Shown here: one piece after another, positions 196-27,285 of the stretch
Layout of the letters: the number at the start of each line of letters is the position of its first letter
How positions within the stretch are numbered: the first letter of the stretch is position 1
From: Isurus oxyrinchus
Taxonomy: Eukaryota
Reading direction: 5' to 3'
DNA: 64,000 nt
Assembly: GCA_026770705.1 (NCBI GenBank)
Contig: JANJGN010000022.1
Location: 21,390,001-21,454,000, forward strand
Made by a program: the position numbers and the translations under genes
Notes under the pieces: generated by a model
Told to the model about the DNA's origin: nothing
Database searches by the model: none
What the model saw: the letters and a program-made list of their open reading frames with translations, nothing else

Positions 196-349
196 ATTAT
201 TCTCTGGGTTGGCCTAGTCATTCTGGTGATCAGCACATTTACTACTCTGACTGCAACAAGTGAACAACCGGTGACACCTGAAAAGCCTCCACAGGACATT
301 AACCATGAAAAGCTACAAAATGAAATGGACCAGCAACAGAAAATCTCAG
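196..349 (+). CDS. SLC38A10: SLC38A10 internal exon encoding the last TM helix and the start of the long C-terminal tail
   Basis: ttcag acceptor ends at 195, AG|gtaagt donor at 350; IILWVGLVILVISTFTTL resembles recalled human VVLWVGLGVLVVSTVTTL; phase 0 in, phase 1 out. Confidence 0.95.
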
Positions 350-1592
350 GTAAGTGTGGGAGTGGAGAAGAGACCTTGGTGATTTTAAAGTGTCAAACCT
401 TGTTATATCTGAGCACTGAGAAACATGAACCATAATTTTATGGATGGGTAGCAGATACAGTCTTGTTAAGATAACAAGTTATTTAGGTAAGAAATTTAAA
501 TACATAAATACTGCATAAGACTAAGATGATGTAAAGGAAAATTAGTGGCATTGTCATTCACTGATTATTTAATTATGCAAAACTAATTTACACTCCACCA
601 TAGAAAGAGATGAGAGGGAAGTGCCAGAAAGGCTTTCAGTTGAGTATAACATTAATGTGTGTACACTTTGGTCATGAATTACAAATTTTTTTGAGCAATC
701 GATGGTTATTTTTTAAACTTGATTTTCATTCTGCATCCCCACCACCACCCTCACCAATGTTCTTGACATAATAGCCCATAACCATCCACACTAATGGTTC
801 TAAACCTTATTTATACCCTGATCTTTGGATGACAGAAAAGAAAGCCATTGGATTTCGGAATGGGGGGGCCTGGGGAGAACAGATAAGCGTCCTTATGCTT
901 TCCAGTAACAAATGCAGGTATAAAACACATAATTGAACTTAGAAAATTAAAAGAAATCTGTACTATAATAATTTCTGAGTTAGTTATAGATTTCCATTTC
1001 TTTTAAAATAGCATGCACTGAACAGTATTAATCTATTTCAGACATCTTACAAAACCATTCTCTCCCTAAACTATTCACTATCAATTTCTGCTCATGCCTG
1101 TTTAGACCTGGGATCTTCTCTAGCAATCTGTCCTTTGCAGATTTGTGTGACATGATACTCTTCTTAGTTTGCTTACAGGGTTAAACATAAGCTAATGGTA
1201 TGCTACCATACTCACAATGGATTGGTGAATATTGAATAGAAACTTTTTTTAGATTTAAGTTAATTTAGATGACACAAAAAAGACAAGGATATAACATAAA
1301 TATAAGAAAAATTCATATTGGCTCAGTTACTATTTGAAAGAATGCTTTTTTTAAATCAAAATTAAATCTCAAACTTTCAAGTTTGGCATATATCCTATGC
1401 TTTGGATTGTACTTAATGTAACCCACAAATAGTGTAGTGGAATACTTTGACCTGATGCAGACCTTGGAATATATTTTGGTGCTGCTTTGGAGACCTGCTT
1501 TTAATCCCTTAATTCTTTTGAAGCCAGGTTTCCAAGACTAGCTTAATGATATATTTGTAAATAAAATTGACAAATGCTATTGTTGCACTTCC

Positions 1593-2604
1593 TGTGGGGG
1601 GTACTGTAACCAAAATTGCTGAGTGACTCAGATAAAGAAATTTCCAACAAGAATCCATTTTTTGTAGCTTTTATTTTAACATGAATCAGAACCAATGTAA
1701 AATGAAACAACAGATAAATAATACTTCAAATAAAAAGGTAAATTTCACTTTAAAAATGCTTCTTGCGCAACACAAGCACCCCCATCACTCCCCACATAAA
1801 TATGGCACTACCAAGCTACACAGTTTCACAGAATGCTGTTCTTTTTTGAAGTAAGGTAGATCAGGAGTCCTATCTGACAACAGCTTTTACCTCCAAGTTT
1901 CACAGGTACGATTATAGTCAACAATACACGCTTCTATGAACCCTCTCCCTCGGCTCATGACAGTCCTGATCGTGTACCTTTCCAGAGTTCCTTTTCAACC
2001 AGCCAACCAATAACATCCAGTTCATGGTTTGGCCACTTCTGGGAAAACACTCAGCTCTTTAGTGCCTCTGACCTATTCACACAGCTTTCCAGATTTTATA
2101 CCTTTTTAATTAACTCGGACATGCCTCCAAGAGCTCTTGTCTCTTTTTCTGCCAAGCAGAAAAATTGACCTCTTCCTGAGAGTAATTTGCTTTTTCTACT
2201 CGCAAGACTTCAGACTCGCAAAGAGATTCCTCTTTGTCTCTGTCTGCTTTTTCTGTGTCTGCATCTGTGCCTTCACCTTCCAGCTCCACTGCTTCTAGCT
2301 CTTTTGTTCAGGCCACATGACTTCTGGCCCAACTTCCATCCTGTTGGTACTGCTTCCAGATCAAGGGTTGTCAGGTCATATAGATCAGTATTTCTTATTA
2401 TCCAAGAAAATTACAATCGATACAAATTCTTAAATGTCCTTTTCAAACATTCTTAAAAACAATTAGATTCCCTAGACATTTTAAAGAAATTGCACATTTT
2501 CCTTACTGCTACTGCTTTCTGGTCAAAGGTTGACACACTGCTTACAATTTGCATACATATATAGTTGTTTATTCATAAATACAATATTAACTTCATACCC
2601 TTCA
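1593..2604 (-). mobile_element. Probable solo LTR, about 1 kb
   Basis: TG...CA ends with imperfect inverted termini (tgtggggggta / tacccttca), LTR-like composition, minus-strand AATAAA near 1670; no clean TSD. Confidence 0.45.
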
Positions 2605-2669
2605 CTCAGCAAAATCCATTTTTTCTGCCAATTTTGACAATTCAAAAGTTTCAGGTAAACTGTTCTGTT

Positions 2670-2699
2670 GGCTAAAGGATAACCGGCTAAAGGATAACC
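2670..2699. repeat. 15-bp tandem duplication ggctaaaggataacc x2
   Basis: Exact duplication seen in the sequence. Confidence 0.9.
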
Positions 2700-2719
2700 A
2701 AACCCCCCTAATGTTTACA

Positions 2720-2884
2720 CACTATGTTCCCTCTAACTTCTGTTGCTATGCACTGTATGGTACACACATTTAAGATTGATACACGTATATCTTAAAGGGA
2801 ATGTTGCTTGTGCATGGCATGTTTGTTCCTGGTACTATGTATTCCAAATTGCTACATGACCCCACAGATTCAAGGAAACATCAG
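2720..2884. mobile_element. Decayed short MITE (hAT-like)
   Basis: Imperfect terminal inverted repeats atgttccctctaa / ttcaaggaaacat. Confidence 0.35.
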
Positions 2885-3456
2885 TTACAAAAGTAATCTA
2901 TTTAGCCCATTCTGATTGCAGGAAATCTTGTTGTTTACTTGTTAGTGCATTGATTGAATTAAGTATTTAAATCAGTGAACTACTTTGATCTAGGATCTAT
3001 AAGCCAATGCCTTTTTCTTTATTTAAAAGTGAAACTAAAGAAACTGTTTAAAAAGGCCATAGACTATACTTTTCTGGCAAGTATTTTGGCATAGGTCATT
3101 TGTAATAAGATCTGCTTTATTTGTTTGAATGTTATTATTGTAGTCCTGTTAATGCAAAACTGCGCAATGTTCAGGCTATGTCTAGTATATTAAAACCAAA
3201 ATACTGTAGATGCTGGAAATCTGAAATAAACAGCATTTTGTTTTTAAGCATATTGACATTTATTATAGGTAAAAAAAAATTTAAAGTGATGAAACATGCT
3301 CATTGCTTGTATTCACGGCATAAAACTCTGTGACAAATCTTGTCTTATTATAATCTTCTGTTACCAGTGTGATTTAGCCAGTAATTGACATTTTCTTTTA
3401 CAAATGTCACAATGCTACATGATTTCATTGCAAATTCTTGTTTCTGATGTATTCAG

Positions 3457-3476
3457 ATGGGAAAAATCCGATCTGA
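3457..3476 (+). CDS. SLC38A10: Candidate alternative terminal exon of SLC38A10 (DGKNPI-stop)
   Basis: ttcttgtttctgatgtattcag acceptor; phase-1 reading gives D G K N P I TGA; AATAAA at 3556 and 4334. Confidence 0.45.
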
Positions 3477-5113
3477 AGCCCCATGCTACGATCTATATAA
3501 ATTGTCATTGATATGTAAACATGTCGTTATGACGTTGTGTGCTGTCAGACTAGTCAATAAACAATTAGTGTACCAGCTTTAAAAATATTCCTACACTGTT
3601 TTAACAAAAAGTATTTATACATTAATGGGTACTCGAGGAACAGTTCCAAGATGCATTCCTTTGGAGATTATAACCTAGTAATCATTCCAAGATTTTTTCC
3701 AACGGAGCCTGTGTTTGTGTGATAATTTCATTGGCCCAATTTTAGTAAGATGACAAACTATTCCATTTCTTTTTGGCAGAGTCAGATGGATCACTGGTAT
3801 GGAAGTTCTGTGTATTTGATACCCTCAGCTTGGCCTAGCAAAAGGGTCAATGATACCAGCATTTATAGGTTAAAACCATTTGTTGGTTTGTTTATAAATG
3901 TATATCTCTTTTTTTTTTAAAAAAAGATTTTCTGTGTTCTGCTGTGAAGCATAGATGTAATTTTCAGTGAACAGTGGAGAGGATGCATTGAGGTGATAAA
4001 TGGCAGGGAAATTCTCTTGGAGCACATATGTTCCAAAATGTGGTGTCATTGACATGACTATAAACTGATTGGAAGCTGGTTGCACTCTTTTTTTCCCAGC
4101 CAAAATTAAGTATTCCCTATGCCCCCTTCAAAATATATTTGCTCTAATCAAGAAGGAAAGCAGGCAATCTGTTTGCTGGCTCTGACAGTGCTGCACTTGT
4201 GCTAGCTTTTAGGTTCGACATGAGTGGTAGCAATTGACTTGTACAGTTTTTCCTCTGAACGTGAAACAGTGGCTAAATCCTTATGGTACTGATAGATCTA
4301 CAAATGTGCTTTTAACCCCTATGTAGTAAACTGAATAAAACAATGAATATTATACTTTTGTTTGTATAGTTGTCTCAGCAACCGATCACATTATGTAGTT
4401 TTGCTACCAGCATATAAGTGCAATAATTATATATTCACTCAGCCTACTTTGTGATCTTGCCCTGCTTTAAGCACCCTGTTGGATTGTTTTAACCTTTTCC
4501 TCTCTGCCTGAAAAAATTTCTTGGTGCAATATTACTAATTAAAATCAAAAGACTTTAAAGGAAACAGTTACATCACTATAGGATTCCCCGAATGTAGAGC
4601 TTGAGAAACAACTCAACAGATCCCAGAATCTTAATGCCCCCAATTTGAGCTTTTCAGCAATGCCTCATTTCAGACATTACTTCATATGTTATATCTGTAG
4701 TCCCCAAATTGCAGTAACAGTTTAACCTGAAAGAAAGTGTGTAATAATCCAATCAGCTGTGAATAATTACATTTGGACTATCTCATTGTAAAGTCATAAC
4801 ATAGATTCTGATGATATTGGATATTTCAGATCTAACTTTTGTTCTCAGCTGTCCGGTATCATGTTAAGGGGTGTATTAAAATAATTTAAAATTTATGTGC
4901 AAGTGGTAACAAAAAAAAAAGCCAATGTCTAAAGTTCTCTCGAAGATCTAACGATGGTTGCCAGTCAGATGTGCTGGAACTTTACAAGTTTGCTGGAGAT
5001 CTTGCTTATTCAAAATTTGCTTAAAAGAATAGCAAGCTACAAGTTAGACTTAGGTCTTGGGCACCCCCTTCAGTGCAAGCCTGTCAGTAAGGTCTTTTTA
5101 AGCAGGTGCTATG

Positions 5114-5130
5114 TGACCCTGCTTTGACCT
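5114..5130 (-). promoter_or_regulatory. Consensus DR5 nuclear-receptor element (RARE-type)
   Basis: Minus strand reads AGGTCA aagca GGGTCA, an exact RGKTCA-N5-RGKTCA match; function untested. Confidence 0.4.
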
Positions 5131-5804
5131 TCACCATCTGTGTCCTGTTTTTCCTGATGCAAAAATACTCCAATTCTGCATTCAAAAGGAACAAACGTAA
5201 AACACGCGTCCTGGGGATTATCCTAACATTGGGGCTGTCACAATAATTTATTACCAAATTAACCAGCCCTGATGAGACAAAATATTGATTATTTTTAGCA
5301 TAATGATGGTAATGTTTAATGTGATAATTGTATGAGCTGTGGCAGTAATTGTCACTATGTTAATTGTGCCTAAATCCTTTCACGTGACATATCCTGACTT
5401 TCTCGGAGGGAACCTCATTGTTCTTCTGTGGAAGAGCAGAAGAGAATGTGGCTTGAGTTGAGGCTCATTTCAATAATGGAAATCTACAGCATTTTCTTGT
5501 ATTTAATAGCTGGAATGCGTTTTCCTTTCAATAAAGTGCTGATGGGCAAGAATGATATTTCCATTTACAGAAAGGTTCTTTGGCAGTTTCTATACTTGGG
5601 TGAAAATACGTGCATAACAAGGATCACATAGACTTGCTTCACAGCAGTTCTTGAACACTACCAAGCAGCCTTACTCCTTTGATCTGTAATAATTCTTCTG
5701 CTATCAAAAATGATCCTTTTTTTTCCCCAGAGTGTATAAATCCAGTACTTTTTTGGAGTAGCAAACAGACATTAGCCTTGGAAGAATAAACATAAACCCA
5801 GTAA

Positions 5805-5925
5805 TGATTGTCAGAGGAAATGTCATTGATCTGAAACGTTAACTCTGTTTCTGTCTCCGCAGATGTTGCCCGACTTGCTGAGTATTTCAGATTTCCAGCA
5901 TCTGCAGTATTCTGCTTTACTATAC
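5805..5925 (+). mobile_element. Penelope-derived terminal fragment (family B), decayed hammerhead region
   Basis: ctgaaacgttaactctgtttctgtctccgcagatgttgcc...gctgagtatttc, shared with 7388, 30400, 35460 and 63600. Confidence 0.75.
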
Positions 5926-5991
5926 ACACCAGTTTGAATAAGATCCTTCACATTTCTAAAGCATGCCAGGGAGTGAGTAATAATTAAACTT

Positions 5992-6989
5992 TGTTACGAC
6001 TGGTCCCCAGGCGAAGTCCCCCAATTTGTTAGCTTCCCGAATGGGACCCCTAATTTTGTTATGCTCTCGGGTGAGGAGAAATGTGCTGCCTCCCCTTCTT
6101 TATTCTACTCTCTCGGTTGGTTGCAACAAGGGATCCCTTCCTCTCCCTTGGATACCTTTTCCCAGACCAAATGTATTCATTTTTTTGAGGAGCCAATTTA
6201 ACCAGACTTTCTTGAGTCAAAGAGTAAGTTTATTAGTTACTAAAACCTGAGGGAAAAAAATCAACAGATGATGGATTTTTGGGTGATTGCTGAGATGTGC
6301 AAATCAGTCTTTTGTCTCTGCAACCGCAGGTTAAAGTTCTGTCTTTTGCATCTTTCCTATCTCCCTTTCAATGTCTCTGCTTGAAGAAGGCCATGATACT
6401 TTTTCAGGTACGACATTCCATATTCTCTCAGGACAACTCTGTCAGTATAATCCACATAGGAATTTTCCAAAACGTGGTCACTTTACATTATCAGCCATCC
6501 TTTGCTCTGTGTCCTTGCTTGTATTTCTTTAAAAACACGCCAGTCTTCCTTAAAAAGTTCAATATGCCCGTAAGTAATTCGTGGCAGTGATCAACTTTTC
6601 ATGATAACTTGAAGTTGATCCAAAAGAATGAAATTGGTGTAACCTTTGAAGAGCTGTATTCCATTGTTTTGATAGTCAAAAATAATTTTTCACCTGGCCT
6701 GCATTGCTTAATTCATGAGAACCACCATCATCAAACTTTTTAAGTTAAAACTTATTTATTCCAGTTAGGGCATAGCAGAATGTGCCCTTTGTTTAAACTC
6801 TCAATAGCTGATAACTCCCTTCACTTGTGACTTTAACAAGTATTTCCATAGTAACAGTACTGCTACTAATGCTGAGATACCTGAACTAAAATGTTTTCTG
6901 TAATGACAGCCATAAGAGAATGAGAGTTTTATTCATTGCTTTGAGAAGACATCACACTTCTTTTGATATCATGACATCACTATATGTCA
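5992..6989 (-). mobile_element. Probable solo LTR, about 1 kb
   Basis: Starts tgttacgac, candidate end ...tgtca, flanked by ACTT on both sides (5988-5991, 6990-6993); the right boundary is uncertain. Confidence 0.5.
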
Positions 6990-7387
6990 ACTTAATCCAT
7001 AATTTATGTTTCATATTTATATCTATATTCCGATCTCTTGTATAGAATTTGAATGCTTGTTTGCATCAGCAATAAATCTTGAATATGAATGACTCACTGA
7101 AGAACCGTAATGCGAGGAAATAATACTTGATGTGCAAAGTATAGAACAAGGCTTGCTCATTTTTTTTGAAAAGGATAGAGTCTAAAAATGTATTGGAACA
7201 AATAATAAATACACTTTTTTGACTTCAAGCTAAAGTATTAATCCTTCATGTATAAAAGTGTCGATTTTGTTCAGTTCGCACTTTTTTGAATCAAGACTAT
7301 AGATTTGAATGTCATGTGAGTGGATAATCCAAATTGAGTGTAGCATTGTTGTACTCTCCTTCAAATGAAACATTAAACTGAAGCTGT

Positions 7388-7489
7388 AATAAAAACAATG
7401 ATTACTAGAAATACTCAGCAGGCCTGACAGTATCTGTGGAGAGAAACAGAGTTAACATTTCAGGTCGAGATGATCTTTCAACAGAACTG
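7388..7489 (-). mobile_element. Penelope-derived terminal fragment (family B) inserted in an old SINE
   Basis: 14-bp direct repeat TAAACTGAAGCTGT at 7374-7387 and 7490-7503; minus strand ctgttgaaagatcatctcgacctgaaatgtta is a decayed hammerhead. Confidence 0.8.
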
Positions 7490-7547
7490 TAAACTGAAGC
7501 TGTGCCTGCTAGTTCTCTTCCTGGATTAAATGGAGCATAAATGAGCA

Positions 7548-9760
7548 TAGTACTAAGAGTCATACAGCACAGAAACAGGCCCTTTGGCCGATCGTGTCTG
7601 TGCCAGCTGTCAAGCACCTATCTATTCTAAGCCCATTTTCCAGCACTTGGTCCGTACCCCTGTATGTTATGGCTTTTCAAGTGCTCTTCTAAATACTTCT
7701 TAAATGTTTTGAGAGTTTCTGCTTCTCCCACCCTCTCAGACAGTGTGTTCCAGATTCCAACCACCCTCTGAGTGAAAAAAAATTCCTCAAATCCCCCTCT
7801 AAACTTCCTGCTCCTTGCCTTAAATCTATGCCCCAGGTTATTGACATCTCTGCTAAGGGGAAAAGTTTCTTCCTATCTATGCCCCTCATAATTTTGCATA
7901 CCTCTATCAGGCCCCCCTCGGCTTCTCTGCTCTAAAGAAAACAACCCTCGCTTATCCAGTCTCTCTTCATAGCTGAAATGCTCCAGCCCAAGCAACATCC
8001 TGGTGAATCTCTTCTGTGCCCATCCTTCCTATAGTGTGGTGACCAGAACTGCACATAGTACTCCAGCTGTGGCCTAACTAGTGTTTTATACAGCTCCAAC
8101 ATAACCTCCCTGCTCTTATATTCTGTGCCTCAGCTAATAAAGGCAAGTATCCCATATGTCATCTTAACCACCTTATCTACCTGTGGTGCTGCCTTCAAGG
8201 GCCTATGGACATGTGCATTAAGGTCCCTCTGATCCTCTGTACTTCCTAGGGCCCTACGATTTATTGTGTATTCCCTTGCGGGGTTAGTCTTCCCAAAATG
8301 CATCACCTCTCACTTCTCAAGATTAATTTCCATTTGCTACTGCTCTGCCCATCTTACCAGCCCATCTATATCGTCCTGTAATCTAAGGCTTTCCTCCGCA
8401 CTATTTACAACACTACCAAATTTTGTGTCATCTGCGAACTTACTGATTATACCTCCTATATTCTAGTCTAAACCGTTAATGTATCCTGCAAACAGCAAGG
8501 ACCCTAGCACCGATCCCTGCGGTGCATCACTCATCACAGGCTTCCAATTGCAAAAACGGCCTTCAACTATCACCCTCTGCCTCCTGCCACTAAGCCAATT
8601 TTGGATCCAATTTGCCAAATTGCCTGGATCCTACGGGCTCTTATCTTCTTGACCATTCTCCCATGCAGGACCTTGTCAACAGCCTTACTGAAGCCCATGA
8701 AGGCTACATCAACTGCACTACCCTCATCTACACAAATAGTCACCTCATTGAAAAATTCAGTCAAATTTGTTAGACATGATGTCCCTGTGACAAAGCCATG
8801 CTGACTATCCCTGATTAATCCCTGACTCTCCAAGTGGTGATTAATCCTGCCCCTTAGACTTTTTTCCAATAGTTACCATACTACTGATGTTAGACTCACT
8901 GGCCTGTAATTACCTGATTTATTCCTACTATCCTTCCTGAATAATGGTACCACATTCATTGTCCTCCAGTCCTCTGGCACCCCTCCTGTGGCCAGAGAGA
9001 ATTTGAAAATTAGGGTCAGAATCCCTGCAATCTACTCCCTTGCCTCACATAGCAGCCTGGGATACATCTCATCTGGACCAGGGAATTTATCTACTTTGGA
9101 GCCGCTGATACTTCCTCCCTTTTAATGCTAATTTGTTCAAGTATATCACGTCCCCCTCCCTGATTTCTACACCTACATAGTCCTTCTCCATAGTGAACAC
9201 AGATGAAAAATAATCATTCAAAATCCCACCTACGTCTTCCAGCTCCACACACAGATTGCCACTTTGGGCCCTACTATTTCCCTGGTTATCTTCTTGCCCT
9301 TAATGTATTTATAAAATGCCTTGGAATTTTCCTTTATCTTGCCTGTCAGTGTTTTCTCATGCTTCCTCTTTGCTCTCCTAATTACTTTCTATACTCCTGT
9401 AGGACTTCTGCTGTTTTTGGCCCTCCATCTGCCATAAACCTTCTTTTTCCCTTATTCAATCCTCTATATCCCTTGACATCTAGGGTTCCCTGGACTTGTT
9501 GGTCCTACCTTTCACCTTTATGGGAACATGTTAGGCCTGAATGCACACTTTCCTTTTTGAATGACCCCCACTGGTCTGTTGTAGACTTACCTACAAGTAG
9601 TTGTTTCCAGTCCACTTTGGCCAGACCCTGTCTTTCCACATTGAAATCGTCCTTCCCCCAACCCAGGACCTTTATTTCCAGTCCACCTTTGTCCTTTTCC
9701 ATAACTACCTTAAATCTTAGAGTTATGGTCACTATCCCAAGAGTTATGGTCACTATTCCA
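7548..9760 (-). mobile_element. 5'-truncated, decayed CR1-clade LINE
   Basis: Minus-strand peptide QHGFVTGTSCLTNLTEFF...VDVAFMGFSKAVDKV is typical CR1 reverse transcriptase; 3' tail near 7550; 21-bp tandem duplication at the 5' junction (9719-9760). Confidence 0.9.
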
Positions 9761-9925
9761 AGCAGAGTGCTATTGTGGTTTTCTCAAACAATTCCGTCAA
9801 AAACAGATGTTTCATTTTACTATTGTTTGTGGGACTTTGCTGCGTACAAAATGCTTGCTGCATTTGTATTGCAAAACATTGCAGTTCAAGGTAATTCATT
9901 GCATGTGAAGCATTGATAGATATTT
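9761..9925 (+). mobile_element. 3' part of an old tRNA-SINE (Deu/SacSINE-like) split by the CR1
   Basis: ttgtttgtgggactttgctgcgtacaaaatg...gtaattcattg similar to the SINE tail at 42450-42550. Confidence 0.55.
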
Positions 9926-10292
9926 TTAAGAAGTGTGATGATATAATTACATTGATGCAAACTCGGCTTGTTTGCAATAGTGCTCTTCATGTTTTGGGAT
10001 TTTTGATCATTGTTTCCTTTAAAGTAAGAATTTAGGAATGAGTTATATTTGAGGCTTGGGTTTTAAAATGAATACTGAGAAATATATAAACTCTGACTGA
10101 CTGCCCCCAGAGTCTTCATTCTTGTATACTCTGAGGATGGGATCCCTGACTTCCCCTTTCAAGGGATGTAGGCCTTTCAACCAAACCATCTGCTCCTGTT
10201 CCTAGGAGCATATTCTCAGTGCATAGCTCCTGCTGGGCTCACATGGACAGAATTATCCTCATCATAATAGGCCTGGTTGTTTGTTAGGCTAT

Positions 10293-10625
10293 TAGAACAT
10301 AACTTAAGAACACGGAGCAGAAGTGAGCCACTTGGCTTCTTGAGCCTGCTTGTCATTTAATAAGATCATGGCTGATTCTCAACCTCAACATCATATGGAC
10401 ATACAAATTAGGAGTACGTCATCGGGCCCCTCAAGCCTGTTCCACCATTCAATAGGACCATGGCTAACCTGATTGTGGCCTCAAATCCACTTTCCTGCCT
10501 ACCCTTGTTACCCTTTGACTCCCTTTGACACTCCTGCCCAATCCCCATATCCTTTTCTTTCCTTAGTGTCCAAAAATCTATTGATTTCAGCCCTGCACAT
10601 ACTCAGCGACTGAGCAGCCACAATA
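10293..10625 (-). mobile_element. Two stacked CR1 3'-end fragments
   Basis: Two agaacata/acatac...ggag...gcctg...ttcaata.gatcatggct units like the CR1 tail at 16438. Confidence 0.75.
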
Positions 10626-10999
10626 TAGGGTTGTTTCATAACCCTGACCATTTTAGATAATAAGCAGAGTTTGTTCATTAACACATCACACTCCCTGCTG
10701 TTTGTGTGGAAAATCTTTTTTTAAAAACCTGTGCGAATTCACTTTATTTTAAAACATAACCTTTTCATGCAACTCAAAGTGAAATTCCCTGGTTTAAAAA
10801 ATTGTTCAAAAATCATTACCAAAATGTTTCTGCTCTGAATAGAGCATGTGCTTACCAACTTCAATAATCAGTAGTTTACTGCTTTAGCTCACTGCCTTTT
10901 CATAATGTTTTGAATAAAAATTGATGTACATTGTTCCAGTTTCCTCCCCTTCCTATATCTCCCATCATCGCTGAATGCAACAGTTGTTGCATGTTTGGT

Positions 11000-11460
11000 T
11001 AACTGGGAACTTGGGTAGCATTTCTGTAGAATGCCCAACTGTCCATTCTTCATGGATAATTTTGATATTGCTTTTCAGCTAGCTATTTAATTGTTAGAGG
11101 GCATAGCAGCCAAGTGCAAACCTGTTCTCATTCTGTCTATTGAGCAAAATTGGTAAAAATCCTAAATGTAGGTTGGATGATGCATGCAGATCCAAAGGTG
11201 AAAAAAGAAGATGCCTCAAGGGGGAAAGTTAACTTCCCTAATGATCTTATGTGGGTTGGAAGGAGGCTTCAATAAATAGCAATCAAGAATGAAAATCTTG
11301 GTTGATTTTTCCTCTTTATCCTTTCTCTATCCGATGGATGCTGGAGGCATTGTAGTATCCCAAATGAAATGAGCTAACTCATCATTGGCTGAACATGAAA
11401 CTTGAAACCTCCTGGTTTCTTTGCCTTGGTACTATACTGAGCTGTATCATTACTCAGCAT
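11000..11460 (-). mobile_element. Decayed LF-SINE-like element
   Basis: ggttgatttttcc...gagctaactca...aacctcctgg resembles the recalled LF-SINE consensus in reverse; similar to 28745-29080. Confidence 0.4.
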
Positions 11461-12993
11461 ATGGGGAAATAATTTGCCACATTTTAAGGTATGGTGTCTC
11501 CTTTTACTTTGACCTTGCACTATTCCTGAGCAAAAGGCTTGGCTTTTTAGATTTTATCCAATTCTGCTCAAATCAGGGTACCAGTAAGTACATAACGATG
11601 TTCCTCTATAACCCTTTATCACCATCATCACCTTTACTTCAATAATTTTACGCAATGAAGTTGGTGAAAATGGTGATGATGGAGAACGTTGGGTGGTGCA
11701 GTCCTGTGTATTGGTACTGTCTGCTGCCTAGCCCACTTGAGTCATCCCATTTATTTCACTGCTTTTACATCCAGCAGATCACACTCTGGATTGTTTTCAT
11801 AGCAAAGACCATTTTCTTACGTGAACAGGTCACTAGCTTGACTCCTGACTTTCCACCAAGAGACCCGACTAAATGCGATAGGATGGATTGCCATTCCTCC
11901 CATTGAATATCAACCCAGTTTTCAGAGGCTGGAACTTGCTACAGCTATCTAGAGGAGCTCAAACCCATAGCATTCTAGCTTAAGTTGGAATGCTGCCACC
12001 GCACCAAGGCTCACTCTGACTGGCAACACTACCATAAAGAAAACTACACACAAAGCAGTTGTCAGAATGCTATCAGAGTGGGGGTGTCTTTAAAACTGGA
12101 ACTTGATTAGAAGGCAGAATACCTTTCATATTTTCTTAATGCACAGGAATCCTCGTTTTGACTTCCAAACCCACTATATGGTCATCTAACAGTAAATAAT
12201 ATGTAAATAGGATGAACGGATTGTATTTCTGATGTATGAAAAGCTGGGAATGATTATCAAACACCATAGAAACATTTAGTTCAAAATCTTGTACGTTCTC
12301 AATGTTGTAAAATTAATGGTGAATGAAAAAGAGTTACGTCTTTTGATTTAAAAAAAAAAGTGCAAGATAAATGATCTATAATGTTGTATTTCTGCCAAAC
12401 ATAACCATTTAACAATAGTTTGATGGAATGGTATTTGACAGGCACATCCCAAGCTGCTTACCTCTTTTGTATAAGACTCCTTACAAATCTAGATAACTTG
12501 CTTACAATCTCCTGAAAGTTCAATAGGTCAGTAAACACAAGAACTAGTTTTGCTTTCGGAAGATGTAGCCATTTGATTGCTTAAGAAATTGTGCATGAAT
12601 GACATTGAGCAAAACAAAAGCAGTCCCATGGCCTGCTTTACACCTTACATAAAACTGCTTACTGATGACTCATTGGATTATAGTTGCAGCTATGATTGGG
12701 GAGATGGGGATAACCGAACAAAATACAGTACAGAAGAAGGTTTTTGCCTCTGTGGATGCTAGCCCCATTTTCTTATAACCTCTCAATAACCTTTTACATT
12801 ATTTTTCGAATACTTTTCCAATTCCGTTTTAAATTAAATCAGTATTTTGTCTTAATAGGTGAATATTGTAACGCATTCCATGTTCTAATAATTGTCTTTA
12901 TGCAAAAGAAATTATTCTAACTCCCTTTTTCAGAACTGATAATGAACCTTTTGTTACTGATTTAATAGCAAGCAGAAAACGATCTTTCGCCAC

Positions 12994-13906
12994 TGTGTTA
13001 ACCCATGTGCTTTTGGGGGAAATTGTTTTATGTTGGGGCAATTGTCCCTTTTAAGAACTAGGTTTCTATAGAAGATTTCTTGTGAAAGGCAACTTGCTTC
13101 CAGTTACTGATCATGTACCAAGTTGCCTGGGGGATAAACAATAGTAACAAAAGCTATACAAGAAGTTAATTATGAGGATGGGCGAGGGAGAGATAGATTC
13201 CTGTGTGTGTGTGTGGTTCTGTTTTAAAGCAGTTGAGTTTAGAACAAGTAAGCAGGAATGTTTCAAGCTGGCAAGTTTCAAGCTGCATTCATTTGAAATT
13301 GTGTGCGCTGGCTAAAAGGGTTTAAATCCTTTGGTAACTGAAGGACTCTACAGTAAGTTGGATAACTGGGATAGCCAAACTGTGAAGAGAGAGAGAGAGA
13401 GAGAGAGACCCTAGATGCAAGACTCCAGAGTTAAAGAACATTAGAACCATGAGAGTTCTGTGGCTACGCTTAAGACATTAGTGATACCTGTGCTGAACTG
13501 GGAGTCTAAAACCATAGGACAGTTGGAAGAGATTTGAAGGTATAACCTTAGTGAAATAAGTGGAAGGTCCAAGAAATTTCAACCCTTATATGAATCTTTG
13601 AAACAGTACTTAGACCAAGTGGGCAAGTTTCCAGCTTCTGGTAAGAATCAAATGGGAAGGAAATTTGAGTAAAAAAATACAGTTTAGAGTGTAAGTAGCT
13701 GTGTTCATTGTATTTCTGTTTTTAACGTAGCTGACTAGTTAAGATAGAGTCTAGTTATCAGCATTCATGTTTTTTGACTTTGGTGTAGTAAAATTCTTTT
13801 GTTTTAAACAATGAACCGTGCGGTTTCATTCTTTTAGTAAATACTCGGGCTTTTAGACTTCCAGAAAAATTTTAAAACGTCACTGGTCTCTCCCGAGATC
13901 ATAACA
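12994..13906 (+). mobile_element. Solo LTR, 913 bp (Gypsy or ERV type)
   Basis: TG...CA ends (tgtgtta / cataaca), perfect 4-bp TSD CCAC at 12990-12993 and 13907-13910, internal (TG)n and (GA)n tracts, agtaaa signal near the 3' end. Confidence 0.85.
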
Positions 13907-16437
13907 CCACCAATTTTCTTAAGTTTTTGCTATTTTGAAAACTTCAGTTAATTTCTAAGCTTATCCCTCAATGAAAAAGACACCTTTTTTAACATCTGTT
14001 TTAATAATTATAATCTCCTTTTCCTGGTATACCCGAGACAGAGGTACAACAAAGGCTGAATTCAGGATATCAACAACATTGTTCGACTCACTGGTAAGTT
14101 AAGAACAGGTAAGCTATCTATCGAATTTCTCCGCGGGTGTATTAGACCCAAGGTTGTGCCACTGTTCATTTCCAAGTTTATTGATAATGCTAAAGTGAGA
14201 CACAGTCCTACTATAGAGCGAGCATTTATGCAGGTTGAGACTGAACTGAGTGATAGTAGGGTTACTAATTTATGCCATGTCCTACACTGTGTCTGGCCCG
14301 AGGTACGCAAATTTCTTTCATTTTTCAATTTGATCTGTGTGCCACTATTTTGCCTCAATAGATGACCACACGATAAAAAATGCATGCTTGAAACATGCCT
14401 GCAATGTAAACTCACTTAGGCGGAAGTGGTTTGGCACTGCAATTAATGACGCCGCCAAATACTTAGTCAAGATCTCTGACCATGCACTCTGAAAATAAGT
14501 AGTTTGTTCTCACACATGGCTTCAATTTTAGTGTGCCTTCGTCCCACATCAAACAGGAGTTCATGTTTGCTAAGCATAAACTCCTCTATTCCCAGCTATC
14601 CTGCCACAAACCAACGTCCAATGAAGACGATGAGTTCTTGAAAGCACACCGAGCTGATCTAGTGCACACATATTGCGGGATACCCAATGACTTAGCCGAT
14701 TTTCACATGCATCACAAATATCTGGTAGCATCGCAAGGCCTCAAGGGCAACCTAGATTTACATATCTGTAAGCCTGACAAAGGAACTGGAGTAGTCATGC
14801 TTAACAAGCATGACTATGTTGACAAAATGCAGGCCATTCTTAATAATGGGTCCAAATTTGTACTCTTTGGACCTGCTGCTAAGCATGATCGCACAGCCCT
14901 GTTTGAAGGCAAGTTACAAAAACGCTTATTGGCCTTGTGTAAGATTAACAAGTTGCCTGATTTTTTATATGTTAGGATTCAACCTCACGGTTCACTGTGT
15001 CCGCACATGTATGGGCTTCCCAAGATGCACACAAATGATGCCCCTTTATGCCTTATCTTATCCATGACAGATTCTGCATAAGATGAATTGTCTGAATGGT
15101 TGAGCAAGTTGTTACAACCAGTTCTGAGCAAATTTTCCACATGCACGGTGAAGGACGTCTTTGCAAAGACCATACAGGACTTGCATATCGATAGTAATGC
15201 CGTGTCCATATGCTAGTTCAACATTGCTAGCTTATTCACTAATGTGCTGCTCAAGGAATTTGCACCATATTACTATATCATGGTGATCTTGACATGCCGC
15301 CATTTTCTGAATCCGTATTTATTAAACTTATGAACTCAGCAACTTGCGCATAGATGATACGTTTGCTATATTTGAATCTGTAGCTGCATGTAAGAATTTC
15401 CTTACATCAATGAGCTCCATCATGCGCTCCAATTCACCATTGAAATGGAGCAGTCAAATGAGCTCCCTTTTCTTGATGTGCTAGTTCAGAGATCTGCCAG
15501 TGGGTTATCTACTACTGTCTACCACAAGCTCACCTTCACTGGTGACATACTTGCTGAAATTCCTGCAGTTCCATATGCTATAAGATTGGCCTTATCAGCA
15601 TCCTGGTAAATGGGGCCTGAGCCGTTTGCTCACAGCGTAAGCTTGTTGCGGAAATAGGGCGCATCAAAACTATCCTGCAGGTAAACGGCTATTGTGCAAA
15701 CTCATGAATGGGCCTAAGGCCTCCATGTTTGGACCTGAAGGGTGCTCAATGTACATCAGATTATCCTGGAAGGATAAGCTGTCTCAAAAATTTGAGCAAC
15801 ACATAAAGCTAGTCATTTCACCTGCTACTATGCAGTAGCAACACGAGCCCTAATTTCCACTAACAGGATGCTGCCAAAAACACGTTCTGCCTACCACACA
15901 AATGAGCCATATGGCATATGAATTTCAGTGCTGGTGTGATGCCAGGTATGTAGGCCGCACATCCCGATGACTGATGGATTGTATCAAACAGCATGTCCCT
16001 TTGGTTGTTTGCAGCAGGCAAAGTACTGATGTACTCAACCAGCCTATGCTTGCAAAACTCAAAACATGGTGTCCAACACGAGATGTGATTCCATAATTGG
16101 AGAACAGTTACTATGCAATCCCGATTGTGCTAAAAATTGCACTAATGACCAATTTGGAGTTCAGTTGGGCTCAGTGTGGCTTCTGTATGTGTACTGGAAG
16201 CTACACACAGGACCCTGTCCTTTGCAAACAGAACATATCCACGCATTGTACCTTATTCAGCAAAACCATTCCCTGGTTCATTTCCCAATGCAATTGATCA
16301 ATCAGAGTTGTCTAGCTTGGTTTGAGTTTGAACAAAAACTTCGCAGTTAACTGTTTCCTCCATGCATTCTCCATGGCAACACCTCTGCCAATCAGAGTCC
16401 ACTTGCCAACCAATTAGCACCCTCTTTTCTTGCAGTA

Positions 16438-19400
16438 AGAACATAACAAGAAATAAGAGCAGGAGTAGACCACATGGTCCTTCGAGCCTGCTTCACCATT
16501 AAATACGATCATGGCTGATCTTGGCCTTCCAACTCCATTTTCCCATCTGCTCCCTATCTCCCTTAATTCCCTGAAAGACCAAGAATCTGTCTGTCCCAGT
16601 CTTAAATGTATTCAACAATGGAACATCCACAACCCTCTGGGTTAGAGAATTCCAAAGATTCACAACCCCTTGAATGAAGAAATTTCTCATCTCAGTCCTA
16701 AATGATCGGTCCCTTATCCAGAGACTGTGCTCCCGTGTTTTAGATTTCTCGACCAATGGAAACAATTTCTCTGTGCCTATCCTATCAAGCCCCTTCAGAA
16801 TTTTGTCAGTTTCAATTAGATCGCCTCTCTTAACTCCAGAGAATATAAGCCCAATTTACTCAACATTTCATTATAGAACAAACCCCTTACCCCAGGGGCC
16901 AATTTAGTGAACCTTCGCTGTACCACCTCCAATGCAAGTGTATCCTTTCTTAAATGTGGAGATCAAAACTGCACACACTATTCCAGATGCGGCCTCACCA
17001 AAATCCTGTACAACTGTAGCAGGACTTCTTTATTCTTGTACTCCAATTCCTTGCGATAAAAGCCAACATTCCATTTGTCTTCCTAATTGCTTGTTGCACT
17101 TGCATGCTAACTTTGTGTTCCTTGTACAGCAAACCCAAGCATGTTTGAACATCAACACTTACAAGTTTCTCATCTTTTAAAAAGTATTTTGCTTTTTATT
17201 CTTACGGTCAACGTAAATAACTTCACATTCCTCTATATTCTACCCCATCTGCCACCTTGTTGTCCACTTACCTAACCTGTCTTTTTCTATTTGCAGACTC
17301 TGCCTTCCCCATAGCTCACCTTTCCACCTAGTTTGCTATCATCAGCAAATTTAAATCCATTACTCTCTTTCTTCATCTAAGTCATTAATATACACTGTAA
17401 ATAGCTGAGGCCCCAACTGATCCTTGCGGCACACCGCTATTCAGTGCCTGCCAACTTGAAAAAGCCCCATTTGTACCCACACTGTTTTCTATCCGTTAGC
17501 CAATCCTCTATCCATACTAATATATTACCCCCAACTCCATAAGCCCTTATTTAGCCTATTATTTTTTTGTGCTGCACCTTACCAAATGCCTGTTGGAAAT
17601 CCAGGTATGCTACATCTGTTGGTTCCCCTTTATCTACCCCATTAGTTACATTCTCAAAAATTCTAAGAAATTTGTCAAACAGGATTTCCCTTTAGTAAAA
17701 CCATGTTGACATTTCTAATCATACTATGCTTTTGTAAGTGCCTTAAGAGTTTCTTAATAGACTCCAGCAACTGATAAGCTAACTGGCCTGTAGTTTACTG
17801 CTTTCCCTCTCCCTCCTTTCTTGAAAAGTGGTGTAATATTTGCCAACTTCCAATCTAGTGGGATAAATCTAAATGTAAGAAATTTTAGAAAATCATAGCT
17901 AGCACACCTGCTATCTCTATAGCTACCTCTTTTAGGGTATTGGCCATCAGGTCCTGGGAATTTATCGGATTTTAGGCCCTTAAGTTTTTCCAATACTTTT
18001 TCTCTATGGATATTAATTTCCCTAATTTTCTCACACTTTTTAGCCCTTTGGTTATTGTCTCTTTCTGGTATGGAGCTTGTGTCATCTACTCTGAAAGCAG
18101 GCACAATATTTGTTCAATGCCTCCACCACTTCCATGTTTCCGATTTTTCTCCTGCATTTGCTTCTAAGCAACCAACGTTTACTTTAGCTACTCTATTCCT
18201 TTTTATATACTTATAAAAGCTCTTACAGTGTGTTTTTATATTTCTGGCTAGTTTACTTTCATTGTATTTATATCATTTTATCAACTTTTTGGTGGCTCTC
18301 TGCTGGTTTCTAAAACACCCAATCCTCAGATTTACTATTGCTTTTTGAAATATTGTAAGCCTGTTCTTTTAATCTAATACTATCCTTAACTTCCTGAGTG
18401 AGCCATGAGTGGGTCCTTCTTGCTGAGTTTTTGTTCTTCAATGGAATGTATTTTTGTTGAATGTCTTTAATTGTTTCTTTAAATGTTTCTCACTGTTCAT
18501 TTACCTCCATACCTTTTTGTCTATTTACCCAATTAATCTTAGCCAGTTCTCCCCTCATACTTGTAATTGGCTTTGTTTAAGATTTTTGTTCACGATTGGA
18601 ATATGTCAATTTCAAACTTAACATGGAATTGAATGGTATTATGGTCACTATTTCCCAGTGGATCTTTTATTAGGACATTCCTAATTTTTTATTATTCTTT
18701 CCTGGGCTGCGGCTTCACTGCCAAAGCCAACATTTGCAGCCCACCCCTGATTGCCCTTGAACTGAGTGGCTTGCTAGACCATTTCAGAAGGCAGTTAAGA
18801 GTTGACCACACTTCATTGCACCATACTGGATCTAAGGTAGCTTTATCCCTAGACGGTTCCACTACTTACTGATCCAAGAAACTGTCACGAAAACATTCCA
18901 CAAGCTCATCTTCCAGACCATTTTTGTCAATTTGATTGTCTCAGTCGATATGAAGATTAAATTCCCCCACAATTATTACATTTTCTTTGTTACAGGCTCC
19001 AACAATTTCTTGTTTAATGCCAATGGTATAACTACTAGTCAACCTATAAGCTACTCCCGCCAGTGTTTTCTGACCATTGCTTTTGCTAATTTCCACCCAT
19101 ATTGATTCTACTTCATGATCTTCAGAGGCCAGATCCTTTATCACTAATGTCCTTATGTCATGCTTTACCAAAAGGGCTACCCCACCTTTGCCATTCTGTC
19201 TGTCTTTCCGAAATATTGTGTATCCTGAAATATTTATTTCCTAACTTTGATCACATTGTAACCATGTTTCTGAAATGATGATTAGATCTGAAGCATTTAC
19301 CTCTATTTGTGCAACTAATTCAACTATCTTATTGCAGATGCTTTGTGAATTCAAATAAAGGAGCTTTAATTTCATTTTTTTTACTTCCGTTCCCTGCAAT

Positions 19401-19690
19401 GAACTTATTCACTGACATACATTTTTTGGTAAACTCTGCCCATTCCTGTCACACTCTGCTTTTCTTTACCCACATCGCTATACTATTCTGAAACCTCAAC
19501 TTTTCTCTTTGGATTTCTAAGCCTCCCTTCACCCACCAATCCCATTAGTTTAAAGCCCTGTCTGCAGCCCTAGTTATATGATTGACCAGGGCGCTGATCC
19601 CAGCCTGGTTCAAGCGGAGTCCATCCCAACAGCATAGCTCACTTTTCCCTGAATAGTGATGCCAATGCTTGTGAACTGAAGCATAAATTG
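16438..19690 (-). mobile_element. CR1 LINE (endonuclease to 3' end) inserted in the Penelope element
   Basis: Minus-strand peptides VESIWVEI...IIVGEFN (APE endonuclease), PGPDG...DWKLANITPLFKKG...NYRPVSL, RNFFIQGVVNLWNSL; agaacata tail at 16438. Confidence 0.92.
18685..18812 (-). mobile_element. L2/CR1-type 3'-end fragment nested in the CR1
   Basis: gccaacattt...ccctgattgcccttga shared with 27205-27285 and, in reverse, with 31520-31600. Confidence 0.6.
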
Positions 19691-19744
19691 AGATTTGGTG
19701 GTATTGTGAATCAATCCAGATGGGTAGACCATATAAGACTGAGA

Positions 19745-19974
19745 TGAGAAAAAATTAGAGGGTGGTAAATCTTTGCAATTCATTGTCCCCAGTGGGCTGT
19801 GGAAGCTCAATCATTGAGCAAGTTCAGGACAGAAATCAATGGATTTCTGGCGACTGATAACATAAAGGGATATGGAGATAGAGCAGGAAAGTGGCACTGA
19901 GTAGATGATCAGCCATGATCTAATTGAATAGCAGAGCAGGCTTGATGGACTGAATGGCTTACTCCTGTTTATGT
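19745..19974 (+). mobile_element. CR1 3'-end fragment, opposite orientation to the adjacent CR1
   Basis: gatcagccatgatctaattgaatagcagagcaggcttgatggactgaatggctttactcctg tail. Confidence 0.8.
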
Positions 19975-20112
19975 GAGCACAAGACAAGACAAAAAGCTTC
20001 AACAACTTGTCTCTTTCAGAAATATTCTTGGTATACTTTTTTTAAAAAAAAAATTGCTGTACCCTTTCTATTGATGTAATATCCTGCCCAAAACTGTACG
20101 CAATACTCCATA

Positions 20113-20766
20113 GAGAGAATTTTTCCTATGGCGGGCAGGCTGGGTATGGAGCTGATTGCCGCCCGCGATTGGTTGCGTGCCGCCATTTTTTGCGGGTGGG
20201 CCGATTAAGACCCGCCCAACATAACCCGCAGCCAGTAGCACTCAGTGCTACCTGTGCGGGGAGGGAGGAGGAGGGGTGGGGGGGGGCCTTGACACATGCG
20301 AGCGAAAAAGCGCAGCAATCTTCCTGAGGCATGGAGCTGCCTCAAAGAGATTGAATGAATGAGAAAACTTTTTAATAAATTAGTAAAAATTGATTTAAAC
20401 ATGTCCCCTCATGTGACACATGAGCTGGGACATGTTTGTGAAGTTAGGAAAATTTATTTATTTATTTATTTTATAAAAGCTTCAGGAAACCTCATCCTGC
20501 CCATGGATGAGGTTTCCTGAAAAACGCGAAGGCAGCTTGGGCTCTTTGCCTGCCCGCCAACCTTAAGGTTGGACGGGCAGTGTTCCTAACAAGTTTAATT
20601 ACTTTTTTAATGGTCTTAATAGGCCGTTGACAGTTCAGCAGGTGTGCAGCCGCCGCCAAACGAAATATTGAAATGACGTGCGATGATGACATGCGCGCCC
20701 GATGTCATTTCGCATTATTTTACACGTCGGGCCCACCCCTGCACACTGACTGAAAGACTCAGCCCC
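20113..20766. mobile_element. GC-rich MITE (PIF/Harbinger-like) with internal hairpins
   Basis: Decayed TIRs gagagaattttt / aaagactcagcccc, ATA on both flanks, CpG retention, internal palindromes at about 20397-20438 and 20481-20522. Confidence 0.7.
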
Positions 20767-21106
20767 ATATATAAGTTAAATATTGTTGTGTAGAAATCCA
20801 ACATCATTTCCTTGATTTTATATTTAATGCCCATTTGGTTTTAATGGCTAATACCGCTTGTACTATCACCACGTAAAGATTTAGGCATTGACACCCCTTG
20901 ATTTTTCTGTACCTCATTCTGTTAACTATTCTTACCTTTATTGTTTACTTCTATTTTACTCAAAATATACTAGTTTACATTTCTCTACAATGATTTGTAT
21001 CCAGCTTTTAATTGATGACTCTGCTAATCAATGCCCTCCTGCAACCTCCTTTATTTCTGATAGTTTGCCATACTCCTAGCTTCAGTATAATTCCTCTTGT
21101 CATTAT

Positions 21107-22253
21107 TTAGTCAGTTAGGCATCTGTCCATCTTGGACAATGATGGACTGTGCCAGGGTGTATGTCACTTCTGCATTGAACATGTCTGTTGTGGCTGTAGA
21201 GACTGATTCATGAGTGGCAGCCCCTTCCGCAGATGGCACAGATGAATAGCGTTGGCCCGAGTCAACTGATATTTTTTCCTTCTGGACTCTCTTTTTGGCC
21301 ATCTGGTCATTTCTTTTGCCTCCTGCTTTTCCACACCCTTCCTGACGGTTTGTCTCCATACACTCTGATCAGCAGTGAAGACTTCCTATGCAAGGACTCT
21401 GATCTGGTCAACTTTTAAGTCTAGCTTGCAGACATCCATGTATTGAGGCTACGCGTGACGTGTTGGTCTCATGCCGATCGCAAGCTCGCCGTAGAGCATG
21501 TCTTTTGGTTGGGGATGTGGCTGTCATTCATTCAGTTCTCATGTCCCAGCCAACAGAGTCACTGTTGTTTTGAGTTGACTGGAGGGAAGTATGCGAGGGC
21601 CCCTGCACGCTGGTGTACTTCCATGTTTGGCACTTTGTCTTGCCAGGAGATGTCCAGTATTCATCTGAGACAGTGGAGGTGGAAGCTGTTCAGCTGCTTT
21701 TCTTGGTTTGCATATGTTGTCCATGCCTCACTACTGTAAAGAAGGGTGCTGAGAAAACAAGTCTGGTACACAGGGAGCTTTGTATTTTCGGTAGTTTGGT
21801 GGTGATTCCCACTTGTCCTGATGCCAACTCTCTTTGACATATTTTTTTCCATGGTGCTATTGTATGCTTTTGGTGACTCAAATGAGGGTGCCTACCTTCA
21901 TTCCCGAGCTGACGGCAAGCTGTTCAACTTGGCAAGACTGCATGCCAAGACCAAAGTGCATAATGCCCTAGTCCGTGAGTTGCTGTTTGCTAATGACACC
22001 ACGCTGGCACCCTATACTGAAGTTCATTTGCAACAGCTTGTAGATCAGTTCTCCTGGGCCTGCAGGGAATTTGGACTTACAATTAGCATCAGGAAGACCA
22101 AGGTTATGGGCCAGGATGCAGAGACTCCGCTTTCCAATAACATTGACCTCCAGAGTGAGGTTGCCATCGACAGCTTCGTAAACCTAGAATCAACAATTTC
22201 CAGTAACCTGTCTCTTGATGCCGAAATCAGCACCTGGATTGCCAAGGCTGCAG
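21107..22253. mobile_element. RTE-clade LINE fragment with inverted 5' part
   Basis: Plus-strand PTLF.IFFS...GKLFNLARL...ELLFAND...FGLTISIRKTKV (RTE RT); minus-strand continuation TKL.VYQTC.LSTLLYSSEAWT; decayed 13-bp TSD at 21094-21106 and 22254-22266. Confidence 0.88.
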
Positions 22254-23649
22254 CTCTTATGATTGTGTCCAAATCTTTTTCAGATAGATGAGGATCAAAT
22301 GCCTGATACGTCAACACTAAATCCCACCAATCTTAAAAAAAAAGCTGTTTAATCCCACATGTTGCTTTCAGTTCCCTGCCATCTCTCACCATAAGTCTAT
22401 ATTTTCCTCATACTATGTGCTTTAATTTTCATGTCTCTTATTAAGTGCCTTCTGAAAATTCATTTGTAAATATCGACCACATTCCTTTTATCACTGTTTG
22501 AAAGAATTGAATTTGACTAGCATGAGCTGCCCTTTACAAATCTATGCTCTACTGTCCTGATTAGTTCATAACTTTCTAAATATTCACTAATTTCATTTCC
22601 TCATAGGAATCTTGGAAGTTTACCCACAACTGAAATAAGACTAATTGACTTTAATTTCTTGGCTTCTGTCTTTTTTGCACAGGGATCTATTTGTTACCAA
22701 CCAATCCTTTTGGCACAATTCCTGTTTCAAAGAAGTTATGACTCCCTTTCAGTGCTCTGAATCCATATGAGCCTGGATATTTTTAATCCTGTTCACTATT
22801 TTTAGATGTAATTTTCTTCTGAATATTTATCTCCAGCAGTTCCTCTGCCATATACTCAGGCACTTCCTATGGTTCCACAATGAACTGTTAAGATCTAATG
22901 CAGCATAATTATTAGCATCTCTACCATTCCCTCCCTTCATAACTGTGGTCCTACACCTTCTTTGATTTATCCTTCTGTATATGTTATTTTTTTAAAGCTG
23001 TCACTATTCGTTTGTCATCTTCTTTCATTCTATTCCTTAACCTTCCTAATTTTTCCTTTTACATCCACAAAGCTGTTTATATTTCTTTGTTTTTTTCTGT
23101 ATTATTCCCATTTTTCTTTTATAGTACCTTTTGAAAAACAATCTCTATACAACCCCAGCCTTTGACGTACCATCTTTATTCCTTGTTGGAATGCAATTTA
23201 GCTAGTACTTTATTCATTCTCTATTGAAACATCTTCCATTGCTAGCCTGCTGTCAATCTGGATTTAGCCCATTGCCTAATTTCAACTCTAGCATCTTTAT
23301 GTTGGAATCCTTTTTGCCCCTATGTTTTCAAATTGAACTTGATGAGATTATAGTCGCTACTTCACTCTTAAGGAAACTTGCTTGTCCTGCTCATTAACCA
23401 AAACAAGAGCTAGCACTGCATCTCTTATTGTTACAGTAGAGCAATTCATGCCTTTACTTGAAATCTTTTATGGAAGAGTATTCTGCTAAATTGTCACATG
23501 ATCTTAAATATTAGAGAGTAGTATTGTTTTTATCAATTACCAAGTTGACTCTTCAAAACCGTTGATCAGCAAGTTGAGGAAAAGGTATTTGGTTTACAAA
23601 TTCCATTGATCAGAAGAATCGGCTCTGGTGAATAATATGGAGGTGGAAG

Positions 23650-23792
23650 AATTTGTATTTGCATAATGCTTTATATTTTTTAGGACATCTCAATGTGTGT
23701 TACAACTAATTGATTTTTGAGTGTAGCGGCTGTTATTGGAGGGAAATGTGGCAGCCAAGCTACACGTAGCAAATTCCACATCAAACAAATAA
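23650..23792 (-). mobile_element. tRNA-SINE 3' fragment
   Basis: ttgtatttgcataatgcttt...ggacatctcaatgtg...gtggcagccaa similar to 42575-42730 and 60588-60700. Confidence 0.6.
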
Positions 23793-23794
23793 AT

Positions 23795-24485
23795 GGCCAG
23801 AGATAATAGCCTGAAAACCTTTGTCAACATAACAGCAAAGCTAATGGTGCTTGCCATTATTTAGTGCAAATGCCACAGCAACTTGAGGTGGGGACATTGC
23901 TAGAAGTTGCTTTTAGCTTCAAGAATATTACATTTCCCTGTCTGTCCCATCAGTTAAATATATTGAACACTGTGAAGTTCCTGTACTTTGTAAAAAAAAA
24001 AGTGAAATCGCCACAAAGTTAACAGTCATATCAAGTTTTATGCACCCTTTTACCAATGTGGTAAGTGTTAATTACTACCAGTCAACCACTGATACTGAAA
24101 ATTAACTATTACAGGCAGAGTCTCACCCCTTCAGATTTTGATTGTTGGAGATATTTTTTAAAAACAAAATTCAGTTTTTAACTTCTCTCAATTCAATATT
24201 TCTTTCTCTTTGTACCTGATTTGACATTGAATTCATCCATTCTAACTTGCACTTTCTTGTTAAGACCTTGCACTGTTAATTTCACAATCATTCAATCTGA
24301 TTAGTTAAGGAAATACAGTTGTTTTCCCTGTTCATTCAGATCGATCCCAGATGCTCTGTAGATGGCAACGTGTATTTGCACTTCCAGCAACTTGCCCTTT
24401 TAATCTCCATGATATTTTGTGAGACAAGGGCACGTCTAACTAACAGTGGTTGCAGTTCATTGACCAATTATCGAAATATTGGGCC
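23795..24485. mobile_element. Probable decayed MITE
   Basis: Imperfect terminal inverted repeats tggccagagaata / aatattgggcca. Confidence 0.4.
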
Positions 24486-27204: not shown

Positions 27205-27285
27205 TCTTCATGGGTTTAGAACGTCACTGGCAAGACTGGCAGTTATTGCACATCTCTAATTGCCCTTGAGAAGATGGTGATGAGA
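27205..27285 (-). mobile_element. L2/CR1-type 3' tail fragment
   Basis: ttcatggg...gtcactggcaagactggcagttattgcacatctctaattgcccttgag. Confidence 0.65.

Follow-up and report, generated by a model that had tools for sequence, protein, structure and literature searches.

An alternative exon opening at position 3780 was found spliced to coding exon 11 of SLC38A10 in one run from a close relative of the shark analyzed here. On balance we take it to be a minor exon, likely polyadenylated inside intron 11 and predicted to encode a tail-less transporter of 445 residues; it probably arises at a low level as a side effect of the intron's great length. The joint 349->3780 is of the GT..AG type, is followed by 999 unbroken nt, and leads to an in-frame stop after 19 codons. 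An earlier note on this DNA had predicted that a tail-less SLC38A10 is made by way of an exon toward the 5' end of intron 11. One contig backs that form, with the acceptor at 3780 and not at 3457, and with the C-terminus ESDGSLVWKFCVFDTLSLA and not DGKNPI. The switch between a plain and a long-tailed transporter that the same note proposed was not borne out: the joint occurred in one of five runs and at low depth, and no short shark protein was present in the database.

The window, that is, the whole stretch of 64,000 nucleotides analyzed (lamniform shark Isurus oxyrinchus, contig JANJGN010000022.1, 21390001-21454000), carries SLC38A10 on the + strand. The 50 residues translated from 199-348 were 100% identical to basking-shark SLC38A10 (P0001), and the last exon was identical to P0015 at 401 of 409 residues. 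Ten coding exons lie upstream of 196-349, which is thus coding exon 11. The layout downstream is as follows:

196..349, + strand: exon 11, with the last membrane helix, the start of the lumenal tail and a phase-1 donor, CAG/GTAAGT (tblastn with P0001 and acceptor/donor context)

350..48611, + strand: intron 11, which at 48.3 kb greatly exceeds every other intron of the coding region

48612..48767, + strand: exon 12 of the long form, whose first bases equal the loose ends of the X1, X5, and X6 contigs at 349

49961..56793, + strand: exons 13-16 (49961-50416, 52056-52193, 53230-53397, and 55565 onward), the remainder of the 718-aa tail

The exon 11 donor agrees perfectly with the consensus (9/9). 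To rank acceptors, a matrix was derived from the 15 that the gene itself uses and applied to the 2790 AGs of the intron; a generic acceptor table was also used for scoring. By the gene-trained matrix the exon 12 acceptor (48583-48611) scored lowest among those of the gene (-3.0, leave-one-out), and 1213 AGs of intron 11 outscored it. In the protein, the last hydrophobic peak covers residues 376-394 (hydropathy), and the Pfam Aa_trans match (PF01490) spans residues 2-389 of P0001. The PDB offers just the distant SLC38A9. A structure model, usable for helix placing only, put a helix at 372-394 with low confidence (mean pLDDT 38.9); the tail was mostly of low confidence in this weak model, except for a long helix at 679-731. 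Further downstream, at 53398-53510, read-through of the exon 15 donor resembles the C-terminal end of the skate transcript-derived protein P0009 (710 aa, GKSHCKEQNKVRQCF). Shark and skate thus seem to have kept the first part of intron 15, which may serve as a composite terminal exon, with the tail ending behind the coiled helix.

Seventeen runs were listed as covering 3440-4400; 11 of the 17 were guessed to be RNA and none was recorded as RNA. Seven were examined (X1-X6 and X8), as contigs without tissue labels and not as reads and with no DNA run among them, and their selection for covering 3440-4400 biases them toward cover in that region. X4 and X8 were without exon 11 cover. The remaining five (X1, X2, X3, X5, and X6) are RNA by their spliced contigs, and exon 11 was spliced in each of them.

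The joint was present in one of these five runs, X1, where it is given as 346->3777 in the complete joint table (three rows); moving the cut by +3 yields 349->3780. It lies in a contig of 1008 nt with a depth of 10.2, unbroken to 4778. X1 comes from a close relative and not from the window's species, with three other letters in exon 11 and 12 in the joint contig; all of the latter fall at 3877 or beyond, and therefore the coding piece is identical in the window and in X1. The exon and its splice site are:

3751..3779, + strand: used 3' splice site, from the X1 joint, with a candidate branch TGAC at 3751-3754 (29 nt upstream), a pyrimidine tract and CAG

3780..3838, + strand: coding stretch of this exon, which adds the 19 residues ESDGSLVWKFCVFDTLSLA and ends in TAG at 3836-3838 (translation of 3779-3835, phase 1)

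3780..4778, + strand: extent of the alternative exon in the single X1 contig

The AG used, at 3778-3779, ranked 16th of 2790 with the gene-trained matrix and 34th of 2790 with the generic table. The predicted short SLC38A10 has 445 aa, residues 1-426 followed by 19 new ones, and is 718 tail residues shorter than P0001, against the loss of ~715 aa given by the earlier note. It keeps the complete membrane domain including the last helix, as placed by the Pfam match and the hydropathy peak.

In X1 the long form was represented by a second contig on 320-349 at a depth of ~105 (arithmetic from depth bins). In this run the short branch thus has very roughly one tenth of the long-form depth, a figure to be read in the light of the fact that contig depth cannot reliably rank parts. 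In X2 and X3 the contig continued past 349 into sequence outside 1-7000; no joint to 3457 or 3780 was among the joints listed for these two runs, and their depth bins near 349 and 3457 were fully explained by the listed contigs. The listed unique pieces of X2, which held no other letters, covered 3910-4094 and 4167-4341 at a depth of 2-3 with no joint. The depth of 10.2 vs ~105, the absence from four of the five runs and the lack of a short shark protein in the database suggest that the form is likely minor.

Other pieces of the intron had a similar depth in X1 (522-919 at 9.8). Therefore unspliced RNA was present in the run, and the joint may sit on nascent transcripts. The last 25 letters of the 522-919 contig, past 919, do not align; they adjoin a donor-like CAG/GTATAA at 917/918, and the piece is possibly another cryptic exon. 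Nearby, 372-721 shows 76-78% identity to two pieces of the previous intron, as an old repeat or a local duplication would. Short-repeat fragments that are highly repeated and highly transcribed (depth in the thousands; self-matches) flank the candidate region at 3185-3235 and 5814-6592.

The earlier note had named an AATAAA at 4334; this signal is present in good context and stands as a candidate proximal poly(A) signal inside the 3780 exon, though X1 and X5 read through it. The candidate ends are:

4334..4339, + strand: candidate proximal poly(A) signal, an AATAAA preceded by TGTA and followed by a U/GU-rich tract

5530..5790, + strand: AATAAA at 5530 and at 5785, candidate distal ends; X1 contigs 4915-5214 and 5279-5741 precede 5785

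ATTAAA is also found downstream of the used acceptor, at 4538 and 4875. Such signals are present downstream of 3780, yet they are common by chance in intron 11. X1 and X6, from two studies, both stop at 4778, and X5 crosses it; near 4778 there are variant hexamers only (AATAAT at 4762 and ATTACA at 4766) and no canonical signal, and the shared stop is a weak hint of an end at best. Contigs cannot reveal transcript ends, and the holes in X1 cover at 4779-4914 and 5215-5278 prove nothing. Neither a poly(A) tail nor a sharp end was seen; the candidate 3' ends are placed near 4360, 4780, or 5800. Within 3780-5820 we found one weak donor-like site, at 4737 (7/9 consensus), which the X1 contig passes; donors are equally scarce in 15% of intron windows of that size. 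No good donor occurs before 6071, and the X1 contig shows no onward joint within 3780-4778. The 3780 exon is likely terminal.

The same data could be read with 3780 as a cryptic internal (poison) exon, or as a splicing intermediate on nascent RNA, that is spliced onward to exon 12 from a donor farther downstream and then lost through nonsense-mediated decay, or that is retained in the nucleus, with no short protein made. The unspliced X1 intron contigs at similar depth fit this account, as do the read-through of AATAAA 4334, the stop codon reached in frame after 57 nt of the exon and the lack of a defined 3' end in the X1 contig. However, 999 nt with no joint and with no good donor ahead until 6071 is long for an internal exon, and several poly(A) signals lie downstream. 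We consider this account rather doubtful, though worth keeping in mind.

Exon 11 was used as a query for proteins. Of 34 candidates, 14 were proteins from sharks and rays, 710-1155 aa long; no shark or ray protein of 30-628 aa was found. No form of ~445 aa was found among the listed members of 13 of the 14 shark and ray clusters plus that of P0009 itself (for the skate cluster, 15 of 32 members). None of the 251 fetched proteins resembled ESDGSLVWKFCVFDTLSLA beyond six identities and none held DGKNPI, in searches that partial records with the 19-residue peptide alone would escape. Of 122 short SLC38A10 entries from other vertebrates, the 120 listed were partial or mis-joined models, intron read-throughs, exon skips, and exits after exon 10, and neither peptide was present in them. 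Among the exits after exon 10 are P0186, P0188, P0192, P0196, P0197, and P0095 (mouse isoforms, vole models, and a bovine cDNA), whose C-termini are mutually unrelated. An Rfam scan of 1-12000 gave a single match, at chance level. The 3780 exon is absent from the shark annotations listed, and it was undescribed in the literature searched (SLC38A10, and shark with intronic polyadenylation), where subscription papers and supplements may hold human or mouse sites. The only paper found for SLC38A10 together with intronic polyadenylation was a pig APA atlas, which in its accessible parts does not describe the 3780 exon.

These searches bear on a second account, in which the exon is a regulated and selected tissue isoform and certain shark tissues switch to an SLC38A10 of conventional size without the O-glycosylated tail, altering its ER/Golgi place or its activity. 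The whole Aa_trans domain (2-389) and the last helix are kept, presence in one of five runs could reflect tissue choice, alternative C-termini set ER vs Golgi place in ZnT5 (in the accessible parts of PMC3161073), and curated tail-less isoforms exist in mouse. Against it stand the low depth, the lack of a short form among shark and ray database proteins and of any likeness to the 19 residues beyond six identities in the 251 fetched proteins, and the fact that the mouse short forms exit after exon 10 without the last helix, so that they do not use the same exon. We judge such an isoform unlikely.

The acceptor of the earlier note lies 323 nt upstream of the one used in X1, with the first of its two AATAAA signals between them:

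3455..3476, + strand: acceptor and DGKNPI-stop of the earlier note, sequence present, use seen in 0 of 5 runs

3556..3561, + strand: AATAAA that precedes the acceptor used in X1; contigs of X3 (3479-3637) and X4 (3497-3650) run across it

Much of what had been described there is in the sequence. The AG at 3455-3456 does open DGKNPI-TGA (3457-3476) from the phase-1 donor, the AATAAA signals at 3556 and 4334 each have a TGTA at most 60 nt upstream, and 3457-4778 is without a repeat match, in agreement with the description of the region as transposon-free (self-BLAST of window positions 1-7000 against 144 kb of the locus). Likewise, 3380-3700 and 3700-4700 matched themselves alone in the window's 5-Gb genome, in a search that skips common words. 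Retained CpGs, by contrast, had to be rejected as an exon mark, with eight in 3457-4365 vs a mean of 7.7 across windows; four of them fall in the initial 164 nt of this segment, a number reached by 6% of windows. Intron 11 contains 42 copies of AATAAA over its 48 kb, and the motif set at 3457 was not above chance: 114 intron AGs score at least as high as 3457 in the generic table and have an AATAAA within 300 nt of their stop. The likeness of the exon start to that of the last exon, 10 of 14 nt, is uncommon (3 of the 2790 AGs reach it), but it was chosen after the fact. Duplication of the last-exon start as the origin of 3457 found no support past these 14 nt.

Acceptor 3457 ranked 101st of 2790 with the gene-trained matrix, within the range of the gene's real acceptors, and has an AG-free zone of 73 nt; because several real acceptors rank alike, sequence alone neither proves nor excludes its use. 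It could also be used in unsampled tissues, with an end at AATAAA 3556, and low-depth contig ends at 3550 (X6), 3555 (X8), and ~3543 (X1, by arithmetic) would agree with such an end. However, the joint 349->3457 was seen in none of the five RNA-contig runs that cover exon 11 (X1, X2, X3, X5, and X6; a thin sampling), contigs of X6 (3369-3550) and X8 (3384-3555) cross 3457 unspliced, and those of X3 and X4 run across 3556-3637. We regard use of 3457 as very improbable. AATAAA 3556 lies upstream of the 3780 exon and therefore cannot end it.

A single contig with a short side of 27-30 nt and a 3-nt microhomology (CAG) might suggest that the X1 joint arose as a chimera in assembly or through a DNA deletion in the animal sampled. 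This is hardly credible, for the joint falls exactly on a known donor and a top-ranked AG with a pyrimidine tract, an overlap of 30 nt is expected of a graph branch at an exon end, and the long-form branch overlaps equally. The X5 contig 3724-3915 crosses 3780 unspliced; the intron sequence is thus present in the same organism, and the joint is no DNA deletion there.

For the minor, probably by-product exon at 3780, the following course can be proposed. The strong exon 11 donor would wait 48 kb for the weak acceptor of exon 12, and a stronger acceptor 3.4 kb downstream would sometimes capture it; with the exon 12 acceptor so distant and so weak, that of 3780 would sometimes win the donor. Cleavage at 4334, near 4780, at 5530, or at 5785 would make the 3780 exon terminal, so that its stop would escape nonsense-mediated decay and some short protein would be made. 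In this putative protein the membrane domain would be complete and the lumenal tail missing.

The interest of such a form lies in the tail. SLC38A10 has over twice the length of other SLC38 members, with a tail of ~720 residues outside the cytosol (PMC5458457); the tail is O-glycosylated in mouse (PMC11402288), and the full-length protein is located in the ER and Golgi (PMC6940841), each as given in the accessible parts of these papers. In the literature searched we found no paper testing the function of the tail or the activity of a tail-less SLC38A10. If it is real, a naturally occurring SLC38A10 that ends neatly behind its last helix would offer a ready comparison for tail function. Should 3780 prove a selected and tissue-regulated exon, a natural form of 445 aa would allow the task of the transporter to be told apart from that of the unexplained lumenal tail of 700 residues; if it is merely minor intronic polyadenylation in a 48-kb intron, the outcome is an ordinary annotation fix.

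Short forms of SLC38A10 without the tail, as predicted for the shark, are on record in mammals: the curated mouse RefSeq isoforms 5 and 6 of Slc38a10 (NP_001158273, 428 aa; NP_001158274, 408 aa), vole models and the bovine cDNA A7Z080. Their exit follows exon 10 (SAQ/SSQ), so that the last helix is missing (Pfam match ending at 373-384), whereas the predicted shark form exits after exon 11 and keeps it, and their C-termini are unrelated to that of the shark. The second human SLC38A10 isoform presumably keeps part of the tail. In human, an alternate-terminator event, SLC38A10-44114-AT, and two annotated transcripts are reported (PMC8160381, PMC3699530), and alternative 3' ends are thus documented for this gene; the position of the human event is not given in the accessible parts of those two papers. 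ZnT5/SLC30A5, with its variants A and B, is likewise a transporter of the secretory pathway in which an alternative last exon changes the C-terminus (PMC3161073). It differs in belonging to another family and in using a composite and not a skipped exon, and the effect on ER vs Golgi place was tested there, as far as the accessible text of that paper goes (PMC3161073). The closest likeness is to skipped terminal exons, a known class of intronic polyadenylation. In the accessible parts of Singh et al. (2018, PMC5928244), the introns that hold them are much longer, and 84% of these exons carry AAUAAA/AUUAAA. The 3780 exon shares with them an upstream donor joined to a new intronic acceptor, signals downstream and a very long intron (PMC5928244), and it is most likely one minor member of this class.
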